From sequence record PX880103.1: 64,000 nt of DNA; one strand, written 5' to 3'. The translations under genes and the position numbers were made by a program. The notes beneath the pieces were generated by a model. The model searched no databases, had not been told where the DNA came from, and saw only the letters and a program-made list of their open reading frames with translations. Each line of letters begins with the position of its first letter. The stretch's first letter is position 1. Of the stretch, positions 6,852 to 43,018 are shown in pieces. The stretch comes from a phage.

Positions 6852-6870
6852 AAAGGGCCGAAGCCCTTTA
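6852..6870 (-). terminator. stem-loop with UUCG tetraloop after a-gt
   Basis: Identical AAAGGGCCGAAGCCCTTTA element overlapping a-gt stop, A/T run follows. Confidence 0.5.
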
Positions 6871-8070
6871 TTTTGTAATAATGTCAAACTGTTCTTTAAA
6901 GCAGAAGCTTGAATCTTGATGCTGATACAAAAATTCATATGCTTTTTCTCGCTCACGGTCATAAAGAGCTCGGTCAGATGACAGTTCTTTAATACGTTCA
7001 AATGTTGATTCCATATCATTTTCATCAAACCAAATGATACCGCTATCATGCGAGGTCAAAGGAGTATTATCAACACGGAATTTTAAATTTTCGCCAGTAG
7101 ATTTCCAAAATACTGGAATTGTTCCACATGCACCAAGCTCGAGGTGAGTATATTCTAAAGAACGTTGTAGATATTTTTTATCCAACTTACTCAACTGATA
7201 ACCAAATCCGGATTTACTCATGCGTTCAAGCATTTCGCTATTTACATAGCGATCGAGAATTTGCGTTGGCAAATTAGGAGCAATTTTAATTTGGTCTACT
7301 TGATGAAGACGATAATACTCGTATGGAATTCCTTTTTCTTTAATAGGAATGAACGCTGGAGAACGTTCCAGACCTTCCATAATAGTACTTAGTCCTGCAG
7401 GTTTAAGATGTTTTTCGTGAAAATCAAACATCTGATAAAAACCTTTCCATGTAGTCGTACGACCAATCCAACGGTTGACATTCATGTTAATTTCAGAAAC
7501 ATCTTTCCAGTAGGTTGACCGAACCTTCGCAATATCCATAGGAGGCTGAAAGTTATATACTGTCGGCGCTTCTTCAATATCATCAAACAAAGAAACTGTT
7601 TCAGGATACCATTCTTTCATCAGAACTTTATTAAAATCACCATTATCAGAATGGCTAAAAATAACATCAGCTCGACGAACAGTTTCTTCTAATCCCAAAT
7701 TTCGGCGCAAAGAAAGAGAAGAATGGTCATGCTGATAAACTACAACACGAACAGAAGGTTTAATGTTATCAATAATTTTTTTATAGTTATTAATAGTGTC
7801 TTCTTCAACTGAAGTAGCAGGAACTGAATTGATAATTAGAATATCACAATCATTTACCAGCTTAAGTGTTTTATCGTATTCTTTTGCCAATAAAACCGGA
7901 ATTGAAAATGATTTATAATCATGCGCACAGTTACGAGTAAATGATTTATCTTTGGCATAAACCAAAGTTACTTCATGACCATTTTTAATAAACCAATCAC
8001 GTTGCTCAAGAGAAAATTTAGTTACACCACAACCTTCAAGACCTCGAGCCATAAAAATACATACTTTCAT
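6868..8070 (-). CDS. a-gt: DNA alpha-glucosyltransferase
   Basis: 400 aa, ...FMARGLEGCGVTKFSLEQRDWFIKNGHEVTLVYAKDKSF... matches recalled T4 alpha-gt. Confidence 0.9.
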   Translation of the reverse strand: MKVCIFMARGLEGCGVTKFSLEQRDWFIKNGHEVTLVYAKDKSFTRNCAHDYKSFSIPVLLAKEYDKTLKLVNDCDILIINSVPATSVEEDTINNYKKIIDNIKPSVRVVVYQHDHSSLSLRRNLGLEETVRRADVIFSHSDNGDFNKVLMKEWYPETVSLFDDIEEAPTVYNFQPPMDIAKVRSTYWKDVSEINMNVNRWIGRTTTWKGFYQMFDFHEKHLKPAGLSTIMEGLERSPAFIPIKEKGIPYEYYRLHQVDQIKIAPNLPTQILDRYVNSEMLERMSKSGFGYQLSKLDKKYLQRSLEYTHLELGACGTIPVFWKSTGENLKFRVDNTPLTSHDSGIIWFDENDMESTFERIKELSSDRALYDREREKAYEFLYQHQDSSFCFKEQFDIITK

Positions 8071-28714: not shown

Positions 28715-28932
28715 GTCACCTTTAAGCAGTATTCTTCTACATGCTGTTTACGACCTTTCTTATCAATAAAGGTATATTCAACGAATGTTCCAATGTAGTC
28801 TTTATCTACATCATGTGGACTATTAATTGGACATTTAGTACGGCAAATGCGTTCCCATTGACGAATAATTACTGCCTTATTCTTTGGGTCATATGGATGT
28901 GGATAATGTATATTCATAATAACGGTTCCCAA
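28705..28932 (-). CDS. hypothetical protein (tk.3-like)
   Basis: 75 aa ORF. Confidence 0.35.
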   Translation of the reverse strand: MGTVIMNIHYPHPYDPKNKAVIIRQWERICRTKCPINSPHDVDKDYIGTFVEYTFIDKKGRKQHVEEYCLKVTWL

Positions 28933-29381
28933 TCAACAATCACAATTTCTAATTTAGAGGAATACGTATCTAAAATATCTTCAATAATATCCCAGTTCCC
29001 TTTACCTATGCCTGCACCAATCCTAGGCATATAGATTGTAGGTTTAATCAGTTTATTTTCACCAAACTCATTTAATTCTAACATACAATTCATTAAAGCG
29101 GAATACTCAAAATTTGGCCCTGGTTGAAATTGAGTATAAAGGTTGAAGCAATACGCTTTATGAGTCCTAAAGTATTTTTCATAGACTGAGTAAGAACCGA
29201 GTTTAGTTACATCACCCCATTCAGTCTGTAATTTATCAGCTTCCAAAATTTTAGGGAAAGCTTTGGTTAATTGACCCGCTACGCCTGAACCCATAGTATG
29301 AAAACAATTGCATCCATGCGCAATATTTTTACCTTCAGCGAAAAGGGCGACAATATCGCCCTTGATATATTTTACAATCAT
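28914..29381 (-). CDS. macro-domain protein (ADP-ribose binding/processing)
   Basis: 155 aa; GDIVALFAEGKNIAHGCNCFHTMGSGVAGQL and PRIGAGIGKGNW fit macro-domain N-terminal and C-terminal glycine-rich signatures. Confidence 0.55.
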   Translation of the reverse strand: MIVKYIKGDIVALFAEGKNIAHGCNCFHTMGSGVAGQLTKAFPKILEADKLQTEWGDVTKLGSYSVYEKYFRTHKAYCFNLYTQFQPGPNFEYSALMNCMLELNEFGENKLIKPTIYMPRIGAGIGKGNWDIIEDILDTYSSKLEIVIVDWEPLL

Positions 29382-29725
29382 CTAGTACTCAATCCTCGAT
29401 TATAAGAATCTACCAAACGGTCAACCATTGAATGACAAGCGGCTTTATCTTTCTCCTCCGCAACTGAACATTCTAAAGTATTCCACTTTTTAGCATATCG
29501 TTTTAACAATGTATAGTTTTTGTATCTGCTTGATTTATCCCTTTCTCCGTCTTTATATGCATATATTAATTTCTGTGCAAATTCAGCTTGGCATGCTTTA
29601 TTTTTCCCACAATAATCTGCCGCAGTGCGGTTTACATATTCTCTAATTTCAGTATATGATGTATCTGCTGACGCAGAAGCAGAAAATGAAATTAATCCTA
29701 TACATAAAACCAAAATTTTAGTCAT
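29378..29725 (-). CDS. vs: Vs valyl-tRNA synthetase modifier-like secreted protein
   Basis: 115 aa with N-terminal signal peptide, at the T4 vs position next to regB. Confidence 0.6.
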   Translation of the reverse strand: MTKILVLCIGLISFSASASADTSYTEIREYVNRTAADYCGKNKACQAEFAQKLIYAYKDGERDKSSRYKNYTLLKRYAKKWNTLECSVAEEKDKAACHSMVDRLVDSYNRGLSTR

Positions 29726-30263
29726 TTACTATTTCCAAAAGTTTATTATTTTTAAGGTAATTAGCCTTTTCTAGGACTTCAGAAGCATATTTAGAACCTG
29801 CTTTAACATTCCATCCCGAATTATAAGAGGATATTGCTTTTCTTATATCGCCCTTATGTATATTTAACCAATAAGAAAGTTCAATGTACGCCCAGGAAGC
29901 TGAATTGGATCGTTTATTCAACATTCTTTTTATTTCAGCATCGGTCATATTATAACCAAGTTCCTTAACTCTTGCTCGCATAGTAGGCAAATAATTTTGG
30001 AACATTCCGTAGGCGTGATGCTTTGGTTTAGATTTTAAATTAACTCCGCCAGAGCTTTCTTGCCATAAAATGGCTGCCATTATATGACCTAATCCGCTCT
30101 TGTGGATATTTTTATGTGTTTTATATTTTCCATCCTTAGAAAATTGTTCCCCGAATTGATACGCGTAACGCATGTTATCGAGTTGGACATTACTGAAAGT
30201 ATGCTCGGAGCTATGTGCCATCATTGAAATGGCCAATAGACCAGCGAGTAGTGCTTTTCTCAT
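29718..30263 (-). CDS. lytic transglycosylase-like secreted protein (vs.1-like)
   Basis: 181 aa, signal peptide, SLT-like motifs WQESSGG, YGMFQN, SYNSG. Confidence 0.5.
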   Translation of the reverse strand: MRKALLAGLLAISMMAHSSEHTFSNVQLDNMRYAYQFGEQFSKDGKYKTHKNIHKSGLGHIMAAILWQESSGGVNLKSKPKHHAYGMFQNYLPTMRARVKELGYNMTDAEIKRMLNKRSNSASWAYIELSYWLNIHKGDIRKAISSYNSGWNVKAGSKYASEVLEKANYLKNNKLLEIVND

Positions 30264-30270
30264 GCTTACC

Positions 30271-30732
30271 TCATTGAGTTTTAATTACTGCTTTAGAAGC
30301 CTTTCCTGGTAAACGACGACTGTTAATAATTGCCATCCTACATTGAAGTGACGGGTCTTTGAACTTCTCGTTAGGTTTACAAACTGTAAATCCGAGCCAA
30401 AGATTTCCATCTGTGATTTCTAAACGTCCAGGACGATATTCAACCCCATCAATAAAATCCTCGTCAATGTCAGGACGCGGAGGCATACTCAGGAATTCAT
30501 TAACTTCTAAAACATGGTCTTTTATTTTATGGAATAATTCAAAAACGTATGTCTCATCAATCTCCCGTTGAATTGCACGATCAAGAAGATGTTGAGAATA
30601 TTTTAGATGAAACGATGAGACCCCTGCTGCTTTTGATGCCTCACGAATCTCATTGTTAATTTGACGAAACTCCGACTCAAAGTGACGACGAAGCTTATTT
30701 CGACGGATAAAAACTTCAGTGTTGATAGTCAT
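30271..30732 (-). CDS. regB: RegB site-specific endoribonuclease
   Basis: 153 aa, MTINTEVFIRRNKLRRHFESEFRQINNEIREASK... matches recalled T4 RegB. Confidence 0.85.
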   Translation of the reverse strand: MTINTEVFIRRNKLRRHFESEFRQINNEIREASKAAGVSSFHLKYSQHLLDRAIQREIDETYVFELFHKIKDHVLEVNEFLSMPPRPDIDEDFIDGVEYRPGRLEITDGNLWLGFTVCKPNEKFKDPSLQCRMAIINSRRLPGKASKAVIKTQ

Positions 30733-30754
30733 GTTATTCTCCTCTTAACTGATA

Positions 30755-30789
30755 GAAAAATTATACCACAGTCAAGAGGAAAAGTAAAC
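30755..30789 (-). promoter_or_regulatory. T4-type early promoter candidate upstream of regB
   Basis: Minus strand GTTTAC ... TGGTATAAT. Confidence 0.45.
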
Positions 30790-30791
30790 AG

Positions 30792-31070
30792 TTATTCTTT
30801 AAATCTAATCAATTTATTCATAGACTTTGAAACTTCTGCACGGACCTCATGTAGGTTTTTAAGTTGTTCAAGACGTTGCTCATAGTAAGCAATTTCATCT
30901 TCTTCGAGACAGTCCTGCGAATCTTCTTTAAGATACCGTGCATAGTCCTGGAAAGCGTTACGGACTACTTCCTGGAAGTCATCAAGACTTTGAATTTTCT
31001 TAGGAGCAACAGATACACGACGAGGGGCAGTATAATACTCGTAACCAAACCCTGCGCTTAATTGAGCCAT
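30792..31070 (-). CDS. hypothetical protein (vs.x-like)
   Basis: 92 aa from ATG ([13 protein letters not shown]...); ATG overlaps upstream stop. Confidence 0.4.
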
Positions 31071-31372
31071 TAGTATTTTTCCTCTGGTTGGAACACTGCA
31101 CGACAAGCCCACATACTGGCTTCTTTGAGTTTCGTTTTAGCAATAGTTAACTGATCGAGGCTTTCAGCATAATTCTTCGCGAATTCACAGTCTTCACAAT
31201 TATCTAGTGCTTCCCAGAATTCATCATATAAAGCATCAAAGATAAGTCCTAAACGAACTTCAGCGTCTTTGATAGCATTTACTTTACCGATTTTCTCTTC
31301 AGTATGTGGCTTATAACCCTTAATATCTTCAATCATATTTGACTTCCTCACCAGTACATAAATCATATTCAA
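31070..31372 (-). CDS. hypothetical protein (vs.x-like)
   Basis: 100 aa acidic ORF. Confidence 0.4.
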
Positions 31373-31550
31373 CTAAACGAATGGGTTCATGAATGCCATA
31401 TCCCTGAACAGAAATTTCTGTTGTAGGATAAATTCCATCAATATCACCCATATTCCACGCTTCATTAAATTGCTGTTCGCCTGAATTACTAAACCACTCG
31501 GCGAAAGCATTTAGCACATCTTCAGAACCTTCAATAATTATCTTTGCCAT
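31329..31550 (-). CDS. hypothetical protein (vs.x-like)
   Basis: 73 aa acidic ORF. Confidence 0.35.
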   Translation of the reverse strand: MAKIIIEGSEDVLNAFAEWFSNSGEQQFNEAWNMGDIDGIYPTTEISVQGYGIHEPIRLVEYDLCTGEEVKYD

Positions 31551-31912
31551 TACAAACTCTCGGTAAAGGTACGAGCGATAACGTCGCGCTGCTGTTCCGG
31601 AGTCAGAGAGTTAAAGCGAACTGCATAACCGGATACACGGATGGTCAGCTGCGGATATTTTTCCGGATGCTTAACTGCATCTTCCAGAGTTTCACGACGC
31701 AGAACGTTAACGTTCAGGTGTTGACCACCTTCAATTTTAACTGTAGGTTGTGTTTCAATTTCAATTTCACGGGCATGCAAACCATAGAAAATTTCTGGGT
31801 CTACAAAAGAGTCCTCTTTAAAGGTTTTAGAAACAATAATTCGCGCTTGAATACCATCTTCAAAATAAATAGTACCTTTATGCGTGCCTTCAAGAATTTG
31901 ATATGCTTTCAT
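31550..31912 (-). CDS. autonomous glycyl radical cofactor GrcA/YfiD-like protein
   Basis: 120 aa; C-terminal ~60 aa [61 protein letters not shown] with glycyl radical motif RVSGYA, matching recalled E. coli GrcA C-terminus. Confidence 0.75.
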
Positions 31913-31918
31913 ATAACC

Positions 31919-32248
31919 TCAATTAGAAAATAAATTTATCCAAGATTGTTCTTTAATTAAAAATGGCTCAGAATCATATGCCATTAAACTTTGGGTGATT
32001 AGTCCTTTAAAAGGCCCATCAATAAATTCCATGGTAAAATATGGAATTTTATTCATTAACTTTGCATTAGGAGCAGTACACAAAACTCTACATCCTTTGA
32101 ATACACCTTTTTGTAATTTGTATTGCTTAGGATAAAATTCGCTCAAGACGTTGTTATTTGCCAAAATTTCAAAATGATTCACCAATTTATTTTTAATAGT
32201 TTTTGGCGAAAAATAAAGATATTCGAAAAGTTGTGTGTCTGTCATCAT
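31919..32248 (-). CDS. hypothetical protein
   Basis: 109 aa ORF. Confidence 0.4.
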   Translation of the reverse strand: MMTDTQLFEYLYFSPKTIKNKLVNHFEILANNNVLSEFYPKQYKLQKGVFKGCRVLCTAPNAKLMNKIPYFTMEFIDGPFKGLITQSLMAYDSEPFLIKEQSWINLFSN

Positions 32249-32832
32249 TGCATTCCAATTACGAAAAACTGTGGACGAGTAATACCATCAATGCAACATT
32301 TACTGTTGCAGCAGTGTTGTACAGTTTCAATATGAATATCGTAAATTTTATCCATATCAGGAGATTTAACAGGCTCATCGATTATATACAAAATCCGCGA
32401 AAGCGATAAACCTCTGAACTTGCTACCTCTATTACCAACAAAACTACGGACAGAATCAGTAAATAAACGGAATCGAATATCATCGCTAGAATAACGAGAA
32501 AATTCTTTTTTAATGTTGCCAGCAGAAATTTTAGCATAAGCTGAAGTATTAGAAAGAACAATAACTGTTCCGCCGTCATACAGCCAATTAGCAGCGAAGT
32601 TAGTCACAGCAGTTGATTTACCAGATTGACGTCCACCATCTAGTCGAAGTGTGCAATACTGCTTAAGTAAGTCTTCAAATGGCGGGATATAATCATTTTT
32701 ACAAATTTCTTCTACTCTAGCATCAGAATGGTGTGTAAAAGCATTCATCAGGGATAGATAAGGACCAGTTAAAAATGTTCTCATTTTGTTCTCTCTAAAT
32801 TTGGGCCATTCCGTGGCGCATGAATTGTCCAT
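32245..32832 (-). CDS. small P-loop NTPase
   Basis: Walker A GGRQSGKST, Walker B-like ILYIIDE; start uncertain (internal ATG MRTFLTG possible). Confidence 0.45.
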   Translation of the reverse strand: MDNSCATEWPKFRENKMRTFLTGPYLSLMNAFTHHSDARVEEICKNDYIPPFEDLLKQYCTLRLDGGRQSGKSTAVTNFAANWLYDGGTVIVLSNTSAYAKISAGNIKKEFSRYSSDDIRFRLFTDSVRSFVGNRGSKFRGLSLSRILYIIDEPVKSPDMDKIYDIHIETVQHCCNSKCCIDGITRPQFFVIGMQ

Positions 32833-33017
32833 TTCTGTATTTACCCATTACCGCACTTGGGCTCGACCTTATTACAGGTTGGCGGGAATCCCTCACAGAA
32901 TCATGAGGTCCAGCTTGTTCCCATGTTATTTGAATGTAAATATTTTTGCCTTAATACTTATACCAGTGTGGCTTCATTAAAATTTTTTCATCGAGTCATT
33001 TTACCTCTCCAAGTAAT

Positions 33018-33053
33018 TATGAATATACTATCACAATTTTAGGAGAAAGTAAA
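33018..33053 (-). promoter_or_regulatory. T4-type early promoter candidate
   Basis: Minus strand GTTTAC-N18-TAGTATAT; near-identical copy at 34362-34397. Confidence 0.4.
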
Positions 33054-33056
33054 CTG

Positions 33057-33359
33057 TTATTTACCTTTAATTACTTTAGCTGCTTCGATAGCCGCTTGCT
33101 GAAGGTCATCCATAGACATACCGAATTTAGAAGCAAAGTTATCAATTTTCTTTTCGACAGCATTCAAAGGCTTGGCCTGTTTACCTTCATTAGCGCCAGG
33201 AAGAGCGAGAATACGCTCTTTGTCAATATAAAGGCTTACAAGTTTCTTACGGTCTTTATCGGACAAATCATGAAATGAATGGGCCTTTTTATTTATAGCG
33301 GCTTCTAATTTACCTGCACTCACTCGCGCTTCAGTAATAAATTCTTGATATGTTTTCAT
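33057..33359 (-). CDS. ipII: internal protein II-like (capsid-targeted)
   Basis: 100 aa, N-terminal capsid targeting sequence MKTYQEFITE with ITE protease site. Confidence 0.6.
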   Translation of the reverse strand: MKTYQEFITEARVSAGKLEAAINKKAHSFHDLSDKDRKKLVSLYIDKERILALPGANEGKQAKPLNAVEKKIDNFASKFGMSMDDLQQAAIEAAKVIKGK

Positions 33360-33400
33360 ATGTTTCCTTTAAATGTAAATAGGCCTAAGTATCGGCCTTA

Positions 33401-33979
33401 TTAATTACCACGGGCTGCATTAGCAACGGCATAAGCGTACTGAACATTAGCGTCCTTAAACGTACCTTTAGAGGTATCTATTTCTGCCTTAAAGCCGCCT
33501 TTAGCCATAACATCGGCAAATTCTTTACGGAAAGCCATTGCATCAAGACCTTTCCATGATGATTTGTGCTTGGCGAATTCAAGACCAGCGTAGTTGACAG
33601 CCTTAGCTAATTTATTATCAATGACCCATTTACCGGCTTTAGGCACAAACTTCGGACCTTTTTGTTTAGAGAACAGTTTTAAATTCCAGCGACGAAGATC
33701 ACTGTCGGCTTTAACAAAAGCTGCGTCTAAGTTACTAGCAACAACATCTTCAATATGAGCAAATTTAAGTCCGTCAACTTCAATATTTAAATCGGTACGC
33801 CAGCGAAGTCCTTCCCAAGCGAAAGCTTTAAAATCGGAAGCTTTTGTAGCTAAGTATCGTTCAATAGGGGCTGTTTTAGGGTCAAAGCCGTTTCCACCAC
33901 GATAGTTCCACTCATCTTTATTAATGCCTTTGGCCTTTACTACAGAAGCTTCAGCGATAAATTCTTTATACGTTTTCAT
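33401..33979 (-). CDS. ipIII: internal protein III-like (capsid-targeted)
   Basis: 192 aa, N-terminal MKTYKEFIAE CTS. Confidence 0.6.
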   Translation of the reverse strand: MKTYKEFIAEASVVKAKGINKDEWNYRGGNGFDPKTAPIERYLATKASDFKAFAWEGLRWRTDLNIEVDGLKFAHIEDVVASNLDAAFVKADSDLRRWNLKLFSKQKGPKFVPKAGKWVIDNKLAKAVNYAGLEFAKHKSSWKGLDAMAFRKEFADVMAKGGFKAEIDTSKGTFKDANVQYAYAVANAARGN

Positions 33980-33995: not shown

Positions 33996-34313
33996 TTATT
34001 CTTTAGGGAAGTTTTTAGAATATGCATCATAAAGCTTATTTCCAATACGGCGGAAAACTCTAGCCGCAAAACGATTTTCTGGGTTTTTAATCATGATTTG
34101 CATCATATAAGTACCCGCGTCAGAAAGAGCTTCTTCATAGTACCCGTTAATTTCTTTAAGAGTCCTACGTTTACCACCAGGACCATCAACAGTGATTTTC
34201 CATTTACCCGTAGAAGTGCGACTTGGCGGCTCAACTTGTTCAATCCAGATATAACCGCCTTCTACACGTTGTCCTGCAGCAGATTCTGCAATAAATTCTT
34301 GATATGTTTTCAT
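33996..34313 (-). CDS. additional CTS-bearing internal-protein candidate
   Basis: 105 aa, N-terminal MKTYQEFIAE CTS; lies between e and ipIII. Confidence 0.5.
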   Translation of the reverse strand: MKTYQEFIAESAAGQRVEGGYIWIEQVEPPSRTSTGKWKITVDGPGGKRRTLKEINGYYEEALSDAGTYMMQIMIKNPENRFAARVFRRIGNKLYDAYSKNFPKE

Positions 34314-39098: not shown

Positions 39099-39174
39099 TG
39101 GTCGAGGCAGTAGGGATCGAACCTACGACCTAGGACTTAGAAGGTCCTTGCTCTTCCTTCTGAGCTATGCCTCG
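39099..39174 (-). tRNA. tRNA-Arg: tRNA-Arg (anticodon TCT)
   Basis: Hand-folded cloverleaf: acceptor CGAGGCA/TGCCTCG, anticodon loop CTTCTAA, T-arm GTAGG-TTCGATC-CCTAC, encoded CCA. Confidence 0.8.
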
Positions 39175-39178
39175 GATT

Positions 39179-39252
39179 TGGCGGACGTGATAGGATTCGA
39201 ACCTATAACCAATCGCTTAACAGGCGATCGCTCTGCCATTGAGCTACACATC
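39179..39252 (-). tRNA. tRNA-Asn: tRNA-Asn (anticodon GTT)
   Basis: Hand-folded: acceptor GGATGTG/CACGTCC, anticodon stem ATCGC/GCGAT with loop CTGTTAA, T-loop TTCGAAT, encoded CCA. Confidence 0.7.
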
Positions 39253-39257
39253 CAAAT

Positions 39258-39344
39258 TGGTGGGGAGTGATGGAGTCGAACCACCCGAGTCGCAATGACA
39301 ATGGATTTACAGTCCACACCGCTACCTCTACGGGATAACTCCCC
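39258..39344 (-). tRNA. tRNA-Tyr: tRNA-Tyr (anticodon GTA), long variable arm
   Basis: Hand-folded: acceptor GGGGAGT/ACTCCCC, anticodon loop CTGTAAA, long variable arm, T-loop TTCGACT, encoded CCA. Confidence 0.65.
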
Positions 39345-39353
39345 AAATTAATT

Positions 39354-39428
39354 TGGTGGCCCTGGGTGGAATTGAACCACCATCTGGCGATTATGAGTCG
39401 CTTGCTTGAACCTTCCAGCTACAGGGCC
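39354..39428 (-). tRNA. tRNA-Met/Ile: tRNA with CAT anticodon (Met or lysidine-modified Ile)
   Basis: Hand-folded: acceptor GGCCCTG/CAGGGCC, anticodon loop CTCATAA, T-arm GGTGG-TTCAATT-CCACC, encoded CCA. Confidence 0.7.
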
Positions 39429-39436
39429 AAATTTTC

Positions 39437-39919
39437 TTATTTTATGTAATATTTATTTAAAAACTTTCTAGCTTGAGTATGGCTAACATTTATAGCGTTT
39501 GCATAATTTTTAATAAAACCTCGTTCATCCATATTAAAATTTTCTAATATTTTTAATCGTCTAGTTATCTCATCTTGACTTAAGGTACTTGCATTATTTT
39601 TAGAAATTTTTTCTAAGGACTGTGCCGAGTGTTTTCGACCATTAAAATTAAAATTTTTAGATTTTGGAGGAAATCTAGCATTTAATCTCGCATCTTTTGT
39701 ATTTTGATTATTAGTTGCGCAATATATGTTATTTAATGAATATGGTCCTTTATCGCCGAAACGGCACATGCAGTATTCATGACCCTTTCTTCCACGCTTA
39801 TCATAATTTCCCGTTGATTTCCACCAATGCAACCATTCATCAAAAGTTAAATTCCATTCAATGTTTCTACGTATAGCAGAATTCCGCTGAGAAATATATT
39901 TTGCATAATCTTCTTTCAT
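39437..39919 (-). CDS. endonuclease-like protein inside the tRNA cluster (degenerate HNH_3-like, with C-terminal DNA-binding-like region)
   Basis: 160 aa from ATG; segment GHEYCMCRFGDKGPYSLNNIYCATNNQN loosely resembles HNH_3 core (H..DGN..NN...NL..T..N); basic C-terminus. Confidence 0.4.
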   Translation of the reverse strand: MKEDYAKYISQRNSAIRRNIEWNLTFDEWLHWWKSTGNYDKRGRKGHEYCMCRFGDKGPYSLNNIYCATNNQNTKDARLNARFPPKSKNFNFNGRKHSAQSLEKISKNNASTLSQDEITRRLKILENFNMDERGFIKNYANAINVSHTQARKFLNKYYIK

Positions 39920-39966
39920 CACAAATTTCTCTACTTATTCAATACACTGAGCTAAATCAGCAAAAC

Positions 39967-40056
39967 TGGCGGAGGCGATAGGATTTGAACCTATGAGTCG
40001 CCGGAGCGACTGCCGGTTTTCAAGACCGGTGCATTAAACCACTCTGCCACGCCTCC
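39967..40056 (-). tRNA. tRNA-Ser: tRNA-Ser (anticodon TGA), long variable arm
   Basis: Hand-folded: acceptor GGAGGCG/CGCCTCC, anticodon loop CTTGAAA, long variable arm, T-loop TTCAAAT, encoded CCA. Confidence 0.8.
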
Positions 40057-40058
40057 AG

Positions 40059-40132
40059 TCTCCGTGGCAGGATTTGAACCTACGACATTCTGCTCCCAAA
40101 GCAGACGCTCTACCAAACTGAGCTACACGGAG
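40059..40132 (-). tRNA. tRNA-Pro: tRNA-Pro (anticodon TGG)
   Basis: Hand-folded: acceptor CTCCGTG/CACGGAG, anticodon loop TTTGGGA, T-loop TTCAAAT; CCA not encoded; 2 nt from tRNA-Ser. Confidence 0.8.
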
Positions 40133-40142
40133 TAAATTAAAT

Positions 40143-40216
<74 letters not shown>

Positions 40217-40221
40217 AAATT

Positions 40222-40309
40222 TGGTGCGAGAAGTGGGACTCGAACCCACAAGGAAATCATTCCGCAGCATTTTAAGTGCTGTGCCTTTACCAATTTGACC
40301 ATTCTCGCG
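40222..40309 (-). tRNA. tRNA-Leu: tRNA-Leu (anticodon TAA), long variable arm
   Basis: Hand-folded: acceptor GCGAGAA/TTCTCGC, anticodon stem CAGCA/TGCTG loop CTTAAAA, long variable arm, T-arm GTGGG-TTCGAGT-CCCAC, encoded CCA. Confidence 0.8.
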
Positions 40310-41990: not shown

Positions 41991-42248
41991 TTATTTTAAA
42001 TCTTCTAATCGTTTCTTCATCTTAGAACCGTTCTTAGCGATTTCGCCTGCATCAGAGCATAATGCTAAAAGTGCTTTAACTTTAGTTTGGTCTCCTTTAA
42101 AAGATGAAGGATCAACAGCAGCAGCAAGTTCTTTAATACGAGAGAAAAGACGCTCAGCTTCAGCTAAAGCCATTCCAAGCTTTACTTCCATACCGTGGGA
42201 AGATTCAGTGATAGTAGTTTTTGTAGCAAACTCTTTGAAAGTTTTCAT
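41991..42248 (-). CDS. CTS-bearing small protein at ipI position (internal protein candidate)
   Basis: 85 aa, N-terminus MKTFKEFATKTTITE resembles CTS with ITE cleavage site; adjacent to 57B as ipI is in T4; early promoter upstream. Confidence 0.45.
   Translation of the reverse strand: MKTFKEFATKTTITESSHGMEVKLGMALAEAERLFSRIKELAAAVDPSSFKGDQTKVKALLALCSDAGEIAKNGSKMKKRLEDLK

Positions 42249-42321: not shown

Positions 42322-43018
<697 letters not shown>

Follow-up and report, generated by a model that had tools for sequence, protein, structure and literature searches.

The two anti-CBASS proteins of phage T4, the cyclic-dinucleotide sponge Vs.4 (anti-CBASS protein 2, Acb2) and gp57B (Acb1), are the closest described counterparts of the genes considered here. 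T4 Vs.4, crystallised as a construct comprising residues 1-88, is hexameric both in solution and in the crystal, where three cGAMP molecules are bound; it binds 3'3'-cGAMP with a Kd of ~31 nM and blocks the cGAMP activation of the phospholipase effector CapV, and knockout of vs.4 makes the phage plate ~50-fold worse on a CBASS host with an inactive Cap2 (Jenson et al. 2023, PMC10097602). The PHROG by which these authors defined Vs.4 homologues is phrog_717 (PMC10097602). A second, independent study reported a Kd of ~84 nM for T4-Acb2 and no binding of the cyclic trinucleotide cA3, which the D61R mutant of T4-Acb2 likewise failed to bind; the identity between the T4-type protein and Acb2 of phage PaMx33 was given there as 24.2% (Cao et al. 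2023, PMC10312549). The Y8A and F82C changes abolish Vs.4/Acb2 function (PMC10097602, PMC12657218). T4 Acb2 also binds 2'3'-c-di-AMP, with a Kd of ~62 nM, and it is this binding that trips the Panoptes defence; acb2 was mutated in 14 of 15 T4 escapers of Panoptes, with frameshifts, premature stops and large deletions among the mutations (PMC12657218). Because sponge activity thus triggers defence in Panoptes hosts, acb2 is not purely beneficial: it helps the phage against CBASS but exposes it to Panoptes. As for Acb1, its catalytic tetrad consists of H44, T46, H113 and T115, and activity is lost in the H44A/H113A mutant (Hobbs et al. 2022, PMC9117128).

How does the corresponding locus of the present phage compare? 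The window, meaning the whole stretch of 64,000 nt that was analysed (one strand of phage record PX880103.1), has its relatives among the T4-like phages of the genus Tequatrovirus. A megablast of positions 30200-32300 matched 815 phage records, nearly all of them T4-like phages of enterobacteria, with Shigella phage ESh18 on top (97.8%) and T4 and T4T at 97.5% nucleotide identity, and a 22-kb query around the vs block returned mosaic matches of 95-97% to many T4-like phages of Escherichia, Shigella and Yersinia. The identity of ~97.5% with T4, taken together with this mosaic pattern, indicates that the window comes from a close relative of T4 and not from T4 itself. The T4T annotation (HM137666), when overlaid on the window, gave a one-to-one correspondence of genes, and the segment from 28.3 to 34.9 kb is an uninterrupted series of minus-strand genes that includes the following features:

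30271-30732, minus strand: regB endoribonuclease, the downstream neighbour (Pfam REGB_T4, 231 bits; 153/153 residues identical to T4T RegB)
30760-30788, minus strand: promoter-like site in the gap between vs.3 and regB (TTTACT-17 nt-TATAAT with an extended -10 TG; top match in 30200-33500, 10/12)
30792-31070, minus strand: vs.3, 92 aa, acidic (91/92 residues identical to T4T Vs.3; phrog_2037)
31070-31336, minus strand: vs.4/acb2, 88 aa, almost certainly the cyclic-dinucleotide sponge, anti-CBASS protein 2 (88/88 residues identical to PDB 7UQ2 and to T4T Vs.4)
31337-31372, minus strand: TTG extension of the vs.4 ORF, inside the vs.5 coding sequence
31329-31550, minus strand: vs.5, 73 aa, very acidic, pI 4.05, net charge -12 (73/73 residues identical to T4T Vs.5; phrog_1986)
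31550-31912, minus strand: vs.6, the upstream neighbour, encoding a GrcA-like glycyl-radical protein (Pfam Gly_radical, 67 bits; 119/120 residues identical to T4T Vs.6)
31919-32248, minus strand: vs.7 (T4T annotation overlay)
32245-32832, minus strand: vs.8 (T4T annotation overlay)

The original prediction, made from the sequence alone, had placed three small acidic ORFs of 92, 100 and 73 aa between regB and the GrcA-like gene, and had suggested that one of them might be the vs.4 sponge. Three minus-strand ORFs indeed lie exactly where it put them, and each of them encodes an acidic product (pI 5.23, 4.66 and 4.05 and net charge -3, -7 and -12 for vs.3, vs.4 and vs.5, respectively). The lengths of 92 and 73 aa were right as well; that of 100 aa was not, being produced by the TTG extension of a gene whose true product has 88 aa. 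The genes are packed tightly: the sequence TAATG forms a 1-nt overlap between the vs.6 stop and the vs.5 start and again between the vs.4 stop and the vs.3 start, and the end of vs.5 overlaps the start of vs.4 by 8 nt. Accordingly, vs.6 and vs.5 are translationally coupled, and Vs.3 and Vs.5 are the coupled neighbours of vs.4. Compared with T4T, vs.4 carries 4 and vs.5 carries 6 nucleotide differences, all of them synonymous, and the 10 differences in vs.3 include a single amino-acid change; by tblastn, Vs.4 finds matches in ~1200 phage genomes and Vs.5 in 989. The unbroken minus-strand run, the overlaps, the many homologues and the mostly synonymous changes together argue that vs.3, vs.4 and vs.5 are genes and not chance ORFs, and they are all conserved and under purifying selection.

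How this run of genes is transcribed is suggested by a promoter scan of 30200-33500, in which no passing site was detected immediately upstream of vs.4, so transcription must start further upstream. The promoter-like site at 30760-30788 serves regB and not the vs genes; shifted by one base upstream it reads GTTTAC, which we take to be the -35 type of T4 early promoters. A weak GTTTAC-type site was seen, by eye only, at ~33010-33050. The Rfam scan at gathering thresholds, which covered the whole window, left the vs block without RNA features and had eight tRNAs at 39102-40308 as its only matches; these eight genes, on the minus strand, form a cluster whose relative position agrees with that of the T4T tRNA genes (tRNA-Gln with the ORFs trna.2-trna.4), and the one at 39263-39342 barely exceeds the Rfam threshold (30.2 versus 29 bits). 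The upstream neighbour Vs.6 has features of its own: it scores 154.6 bits against the GrcA family TIGR04365, under the 170-bit equivalog cut-off, and its glycyl-radical domain match is limited to the C-terminal half (residues 60-120), the N-terminal ~55 residues being phage-specific. The vs.6 gene directly adjoins acb2 in Slopekvirus too, where vs.5 is absent.

Of the three ORFs, the middle one alone is the sponge gene that the original prediction had suspected somewhere in the block. Its product matches the PDB entry 7UQ2, 'Vs.4', at 88/88 residues (E 1.9e-57), it passes the Pfam family PF24729 Acb2_Tad1_hairpin with 71.4 bits (cut-off 27) and it falls in phrog_717 (E 1.5e-33); moreover, the syntenic gene of phage P8, a close relative, is already annotated as 'anti-CBASS protein 2'. 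When the pocket, interface and genetic-screen residues listed for the T4 protein (PMC10097602; T4 numbering) were compared with the translated ORF, all of them proved to be kept, namely Y8, H11, K23, R79 and F82 in the cyclic-dinucleotide pocket, which stack against or hydrogen-bond cGAMP, L29, F33, A66, A73 and A77 at the hexamer interface, and the screen positions T12 and S74. Hence, the outcome by which the suggestion would have fallen, that none of the three ORFs aligns with Acb2, did not occur, since the middle one aligns at 100% identity. Directly observed are the identity to T4 Vs.4, the membership in the Acb2 family, the conserved residues, the arrangement of the genes and the lack of dependence on vs.3 and vs.5. 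No feature of the sequence speaks against the assignment, and we regard it as virtually assured that 31070-31336 on the minus strand is vs.4/acb2 of a T4-like phage, encoding a CBASS-countering cyclic-dinucleotide sponge, with vs.3 and vs.5 as separate, unrelated genes.

Where does this gene begin? The ORF at 31070-31372 is a mechanical TTG-to-stop reading of 100 aa that reaches back to the TTG at 31372, and the phrog_717 alignment begins at residue 10 of this longer form, so one could ask whether the true product is the 100-aa protein and not the 88-aa Vs.4. However, the scan upstream of that TTG found no Shine-Dalgarno sequence, whereas the ATG at 31336, 36 nt 3' of it, is preceded by GAGGAAG and opens an 88-aa frame. 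This shorter form agrees with the T4T annotation and with the T4 record X04567 ('ORF 62.5 (AA 1-88)'), in which a ribosome-binding site is marked, and residues 1-88 also make up the protein that was crystallised and is functional. The longer form would furthermore overlap vs.5 by 44 nt, and the upstream extension differs in length in phAPEC8 and Av-05 and is not conserved. The TTG-start reading, lacking both a Shine-Dalgarno sequence and conservation, was therefore rejected as highly improbable, and Vs.4 probably does not include the residues encoded by 31337-31372.

A different objection would be that this copy of vs.4 no longer functions or is in decay, in the manner of the denV remnant elsewhere in the window. 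The clear loss of denV nearby means that gene loss does occur in the region, and Panoptes selects for loss of acb2 function; yet the vs.4 ORF is intact from ATG to stop, has not one amino-acid change from the functional T4 protein, and differs from the T4T gene only by synonymous substitutions, which leaves the idea of a remnant with a next to negligible probability. We infer that vs.4 would be expressed and would do the same job in this phage as in T4.

The denV gene itself, which in T4 lies between ipII and vs.8 and encodes endonuclease V, a glycosylase of UV repair, is absent from the corresponding interval of the window (32833-33056; remnant at 32936-32995, minus strand). Left over are a promoter and Shine-Dalgarno region and the first 8 nt of denV (ATGACTCG), the latter fused to a 3' piece, with a stop after 3 codons. 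A tblastn search of the whole 64-kb window with T4 DenV matched residues 118-137 only, and the phage may be UV-sensitive unless denV resides elsewhere in its genome; in phage P8, denV lies beyond the internal-protein genes and does not adjoin vs.8. The adjacent vs.8 region (32245-32896, minus strand) encodes an N-terminus unlike that of the T4T annotation, with 195 aa from another ATG as opposed to 216 aa, and owing to a 1-nt indel the N-terminal peptide of T4T (MRDSRQPVIRSS...) lies in a separate 33-aa frame at 32795-32896. Since the conserved core of Vs.8 starts near MRTFLTGPYL, and the phrog_1488 alignment at residue 19, the annotated T4 start may be too far upstream. Vs.8 also contains a P-loop, GGRQSGKST, and has a weak AAA/terminase-N similarity.

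Returning to vs.4, homologues in two other phages show that the gene can stand alone. Escherichia phage phAPEC8 (JX561091; Stephanstirmvirinae) carries a Vs.4 homologue of 77% identity amid unrelated small genes, and in the Slopekvirus phiKp_1 a vs.4 homologue directly follows grcA, with vs.5 and vs.3 absent; the presence of vs.4 without vs.3 and vs.5 in both phages indicates that it is independent of these neighbours. Both homologues keep the N-terminal DIKGYKPHT, the lysine in IKDAE/LKDAE and the C-terminal (A/S)VFQP, with a variable middle, a pattern of conservation that agrees with the published binding and interface residues. As to the phAPEC8 locus, acb2 occupies positions 1995-2264 of the stretch examined, the phage is a non-T4-like myovirus, and the neighbours are small acidic ORFs ending in ...SSC or ...SMC, among which a C-terminal SS(S)C motif recurs. 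Its occurrence in this setting points to a horizontal transfer of acb2 on its own.

Given that both the sequence and the genomic position are those of T4 Vs.4, the product should be the same hexameric cyclic-dinucleotide sponge, and its action can be sketched after the T4 protein. The 88-aa product would form an interlocked hexamer holding three cyclic dinucleotides in pockets between pairs of monomers, its expected ligands being 3'3'-cGAMP (Kd ~30-85 nM) and other cyclic dinucleotides, and not cyclic trinucleotides. By sequestering the signal made by the CD-NTase, it would keep CBASS effectors such as CapV inactive and thereby allow phage replication to be completed, alongside Acb1 (57B), which would destroy cyclic nucleotides enzymatically. 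Could it instead belong to the PaMx33/JBD67 subtype with its trinucleotide pocket? That subtype would call for an arginine equivalent to R67, along with a threonine equivalent to T74 and a helix kink by which the second pocket is enlarged. The ORF has D61 at the position equivalent to R67, and T68 is present; this combination, found in T4-Acb2, places it in the dinucleotide-only T4 subtype.

If the middle gene is the sponge, what are the two others? That Vs.3 or Vs.5, instead of or besides the middle ORF, might be an Acb2-type sponge, for instance a diverged paralogue, is an idea invited by three small acidic proteins encoded by overlapping genes in one tight run, and by a helical hairpin in the Vs.3 model that loosely recalls the Acb2/Tad1 hairpin. 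However, hhalign alignments of the Vs.3 and Vs.5 families against Vs.4 detected no homology (probabilities of 0.6% and 0.2%, respectively), neither protein matched PF24729 even at E<=1, and the Vs.4 signature KGY...K...R..F occurs in neither. Foldseek comparisons of both models against the PDB, which includes structures of Acb2, Tad1 and Tad2, likewise gave no match at E<=0.001, but with models of low confidence: the AlphaFold2 model of Vs.3 (pLDDT 61.7, shallow alignment) has residues 1-21 disordered, followed by the helical hairpin, and that of Vs.5 (pLDDT 66.5, also from a shallow alignment) consists of a long helix between two strands, and both are too weak for interpretation. The hhalign values led us to reject the paralogue idea as very hard to credit, and Vs.3 and Vs.5 are separate small acidic proteins and not Acb2-type sponges.

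What else these two proteins might be is approached through their relatives. No Pfam, NCBIfam or PADLOC family was found for either of them, phrog_2037 and phrog_1986 being labelled 'unknown function' and the Pfam output amounting to sub-threshold noise (Tex_N, 18.6 bits, and UvsW_N, 14.4 bits). A search of 5.8 billion proteins yielded 43 homologue clusters for Vs.3 and 11 for Vs.5, whose named members are all from T4-like phages or from bacterial entries resembling phage contigs; both proteins are thus restricted to the T4-like group. In an exhaustive search of 1.84 billion representatives, the Vs.5 profile matched 16 proteins at E<=0.001; half of them are short (50-118 aa) and include all the full-length matches (62-97 aa), and the other eight are proteins of 895-1839 aa in which only short repeated stretches match, and which were taken as spurious. 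The literature search for vs.3, vs.5 and vs.6 returned only clinical papers with 'vs.3' and similar strings as text, and a HIDEN-SEQ preprint that names only 57B. One 57-aa metagenomic gene call (P0054) combines the N-terminus of Vs.3, at 94% identity over 35% of Vs.3, with the Acb2 domain of Pfam; instead of a genuine fusion protein, this is most likely the result of a contig edge or a frameshift that joined vs.4 and vs.3 across their 1-nt overlap. Based on their location, their charge (-12 within the 73 aa of Vs.5) and their conservation in hundreds of T4-like phages, one may speculate that Vs.3 and/or Vs.5 are accessory or independent counter-defence factors, Vs.5 as a nucleic-acid mimic or inhibitor, or either of them modulating Acb2 or shielding the phage from the sponge-sensing Panoptes; we consider this a rather unlikely proposal. 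The two proteins, packed in an overlapping run with a proven anti-defence gene, could be the remaining point of interest in the block.

The sponge is accompanied in the window by two further anti-defence genes:

42322-42780, minus strand: 57B/acb1, 2H-phosphoesterase cleaving CBASS cyclic nucleotides (152/152 residues identical to T4T gp57B)
6868-8070, minus strand: a-gt, DNA alpha-glucosyltransferase, 400 aa (hmC glucosylation, anti-restriction; Pfam PF11440 AGT, 786 bits)

That the 57B gene at 42322-42780 is Acb1, as had been proposed, is borne out by its 100% identity to T4 gp57B and by a score of 202.7 bits against Pfam PF23474 Acb1 (cut-off 27). In the alignment with the Acb1 structure PDB 7T26 (E 4.2e-62) both HxT motifs are aligned, and the catalytic tetrad HxT/HxT is present as H44-S-T46 and H113-I-T115; thus H44, T46, H113 and T115, the loss of which would have spoken against the assignment, were all found. 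The a-gt product covers the PF11440 profile end to end (positions 1-355/355). The expectation that the window would carry at least three anti-defence functions has accordingly held up, with the Acb2 sponge, the Acb1 nuclease and the alpha-glucosyltransferase all identified by sequence, and this T4 relative possesses the complete, unaltered T4 anti-CBASS pair together with hmC alpha-glucosylation. Such knowledge aids host-range prediction, in that the phage would be expected to evade CBASS of the cGAMP type and to be sensitive to Panoptes.

Several other genes of the window deserve mention. At 41991-42248 (minus strand), in the ipI locus by 57B, lies an ORF of 85 aa that has only the leader MKTFKEF... 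in common with T4 IPI and is otherwise unrelated, so the internal-protein cargo differs in this phage. In T4, IPI* is an anti-GmrSD factor, a function that this phage probably lacks. T4T lacks any gene between ipIII and the lysozyme gene e, but in the window this interval contains an extra ORF of 105 aa with the internal-protein leader MKTYQEFIAE (33996-34313, minus strand); identical or similar proteins occur in 190 phage records, some annotated as internal head protein, and the product is probably one more internal protein that is injected. Closer to regB, the product of tk.4 (28914-29381, minus strand) has a macro domain (Pfam Macro, 28 bits), which in a phage could act on ADP-ribose-based host signals, and vs.1 (29718-30263, minus strand) has a weak match to the SLT transglycosylase domain (25 bits, cut-off 21.3) and an N-terminus that looks, by eye, like a signal peptide.

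Among the known nucleotide-capturing systems, one parallel is offered by Tad1, which has a hairpin domain in common with Acb2, hence the name of PF24729. The anti-Thoeris sponges Tad1 and Tad2 likewise work by capturing a nucleotide signal of immunity, but they have other ligands (gcADPR) and another overall architecture, and the search for a Tad-like protein in the vs block found none. Acb1 differs from Vs.4 in another way, as it acts enzymatically, with a 2H phosphoesterase fold, and is no sponge, is unrelated to Vs.4 in sequence and is encoded 11 kb away; the protein in the window, identical to T4 gp57B, is directed at the same CBASS signals as the described Acb1 proteins (PMC9117128; PDB 7T26, from Erwinia phage FBB1). 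Closer to Vs.4 stands PaMx33 Acb2 (p26; PDB 8H2J and 8IXZ; Huiting 2023; Cao 2023, PMC10312549), which belongs to the same Pfam family and aligns over the full length, with the N-terminal IKGY motif, a lysine in helix 1 (Vs.4 K23) and R-A-x-x-Q-P at the C-terminus conserved between the two, even though the direct sequence match of the Vs.4 ORF to the PaMx33 structures is marginal (E 0.026-0.027). [quoted passage not shown] With T4 itself, whose protein, structure and mechanism were already published in 2023, the comparison reveals no new biology but the known anti-CBASS pair in a close relative: relative to T4 Vs.4 (PDB 7UQ2; Jenson et al. 2023, PMC10097602), the 88 aa are identical, the order vs.5-vs.4-vs.3-regB is the same, and the gene differs by the 4 synonymous nucleotide changes only, within a block of ~97.5% nucleotide identity.
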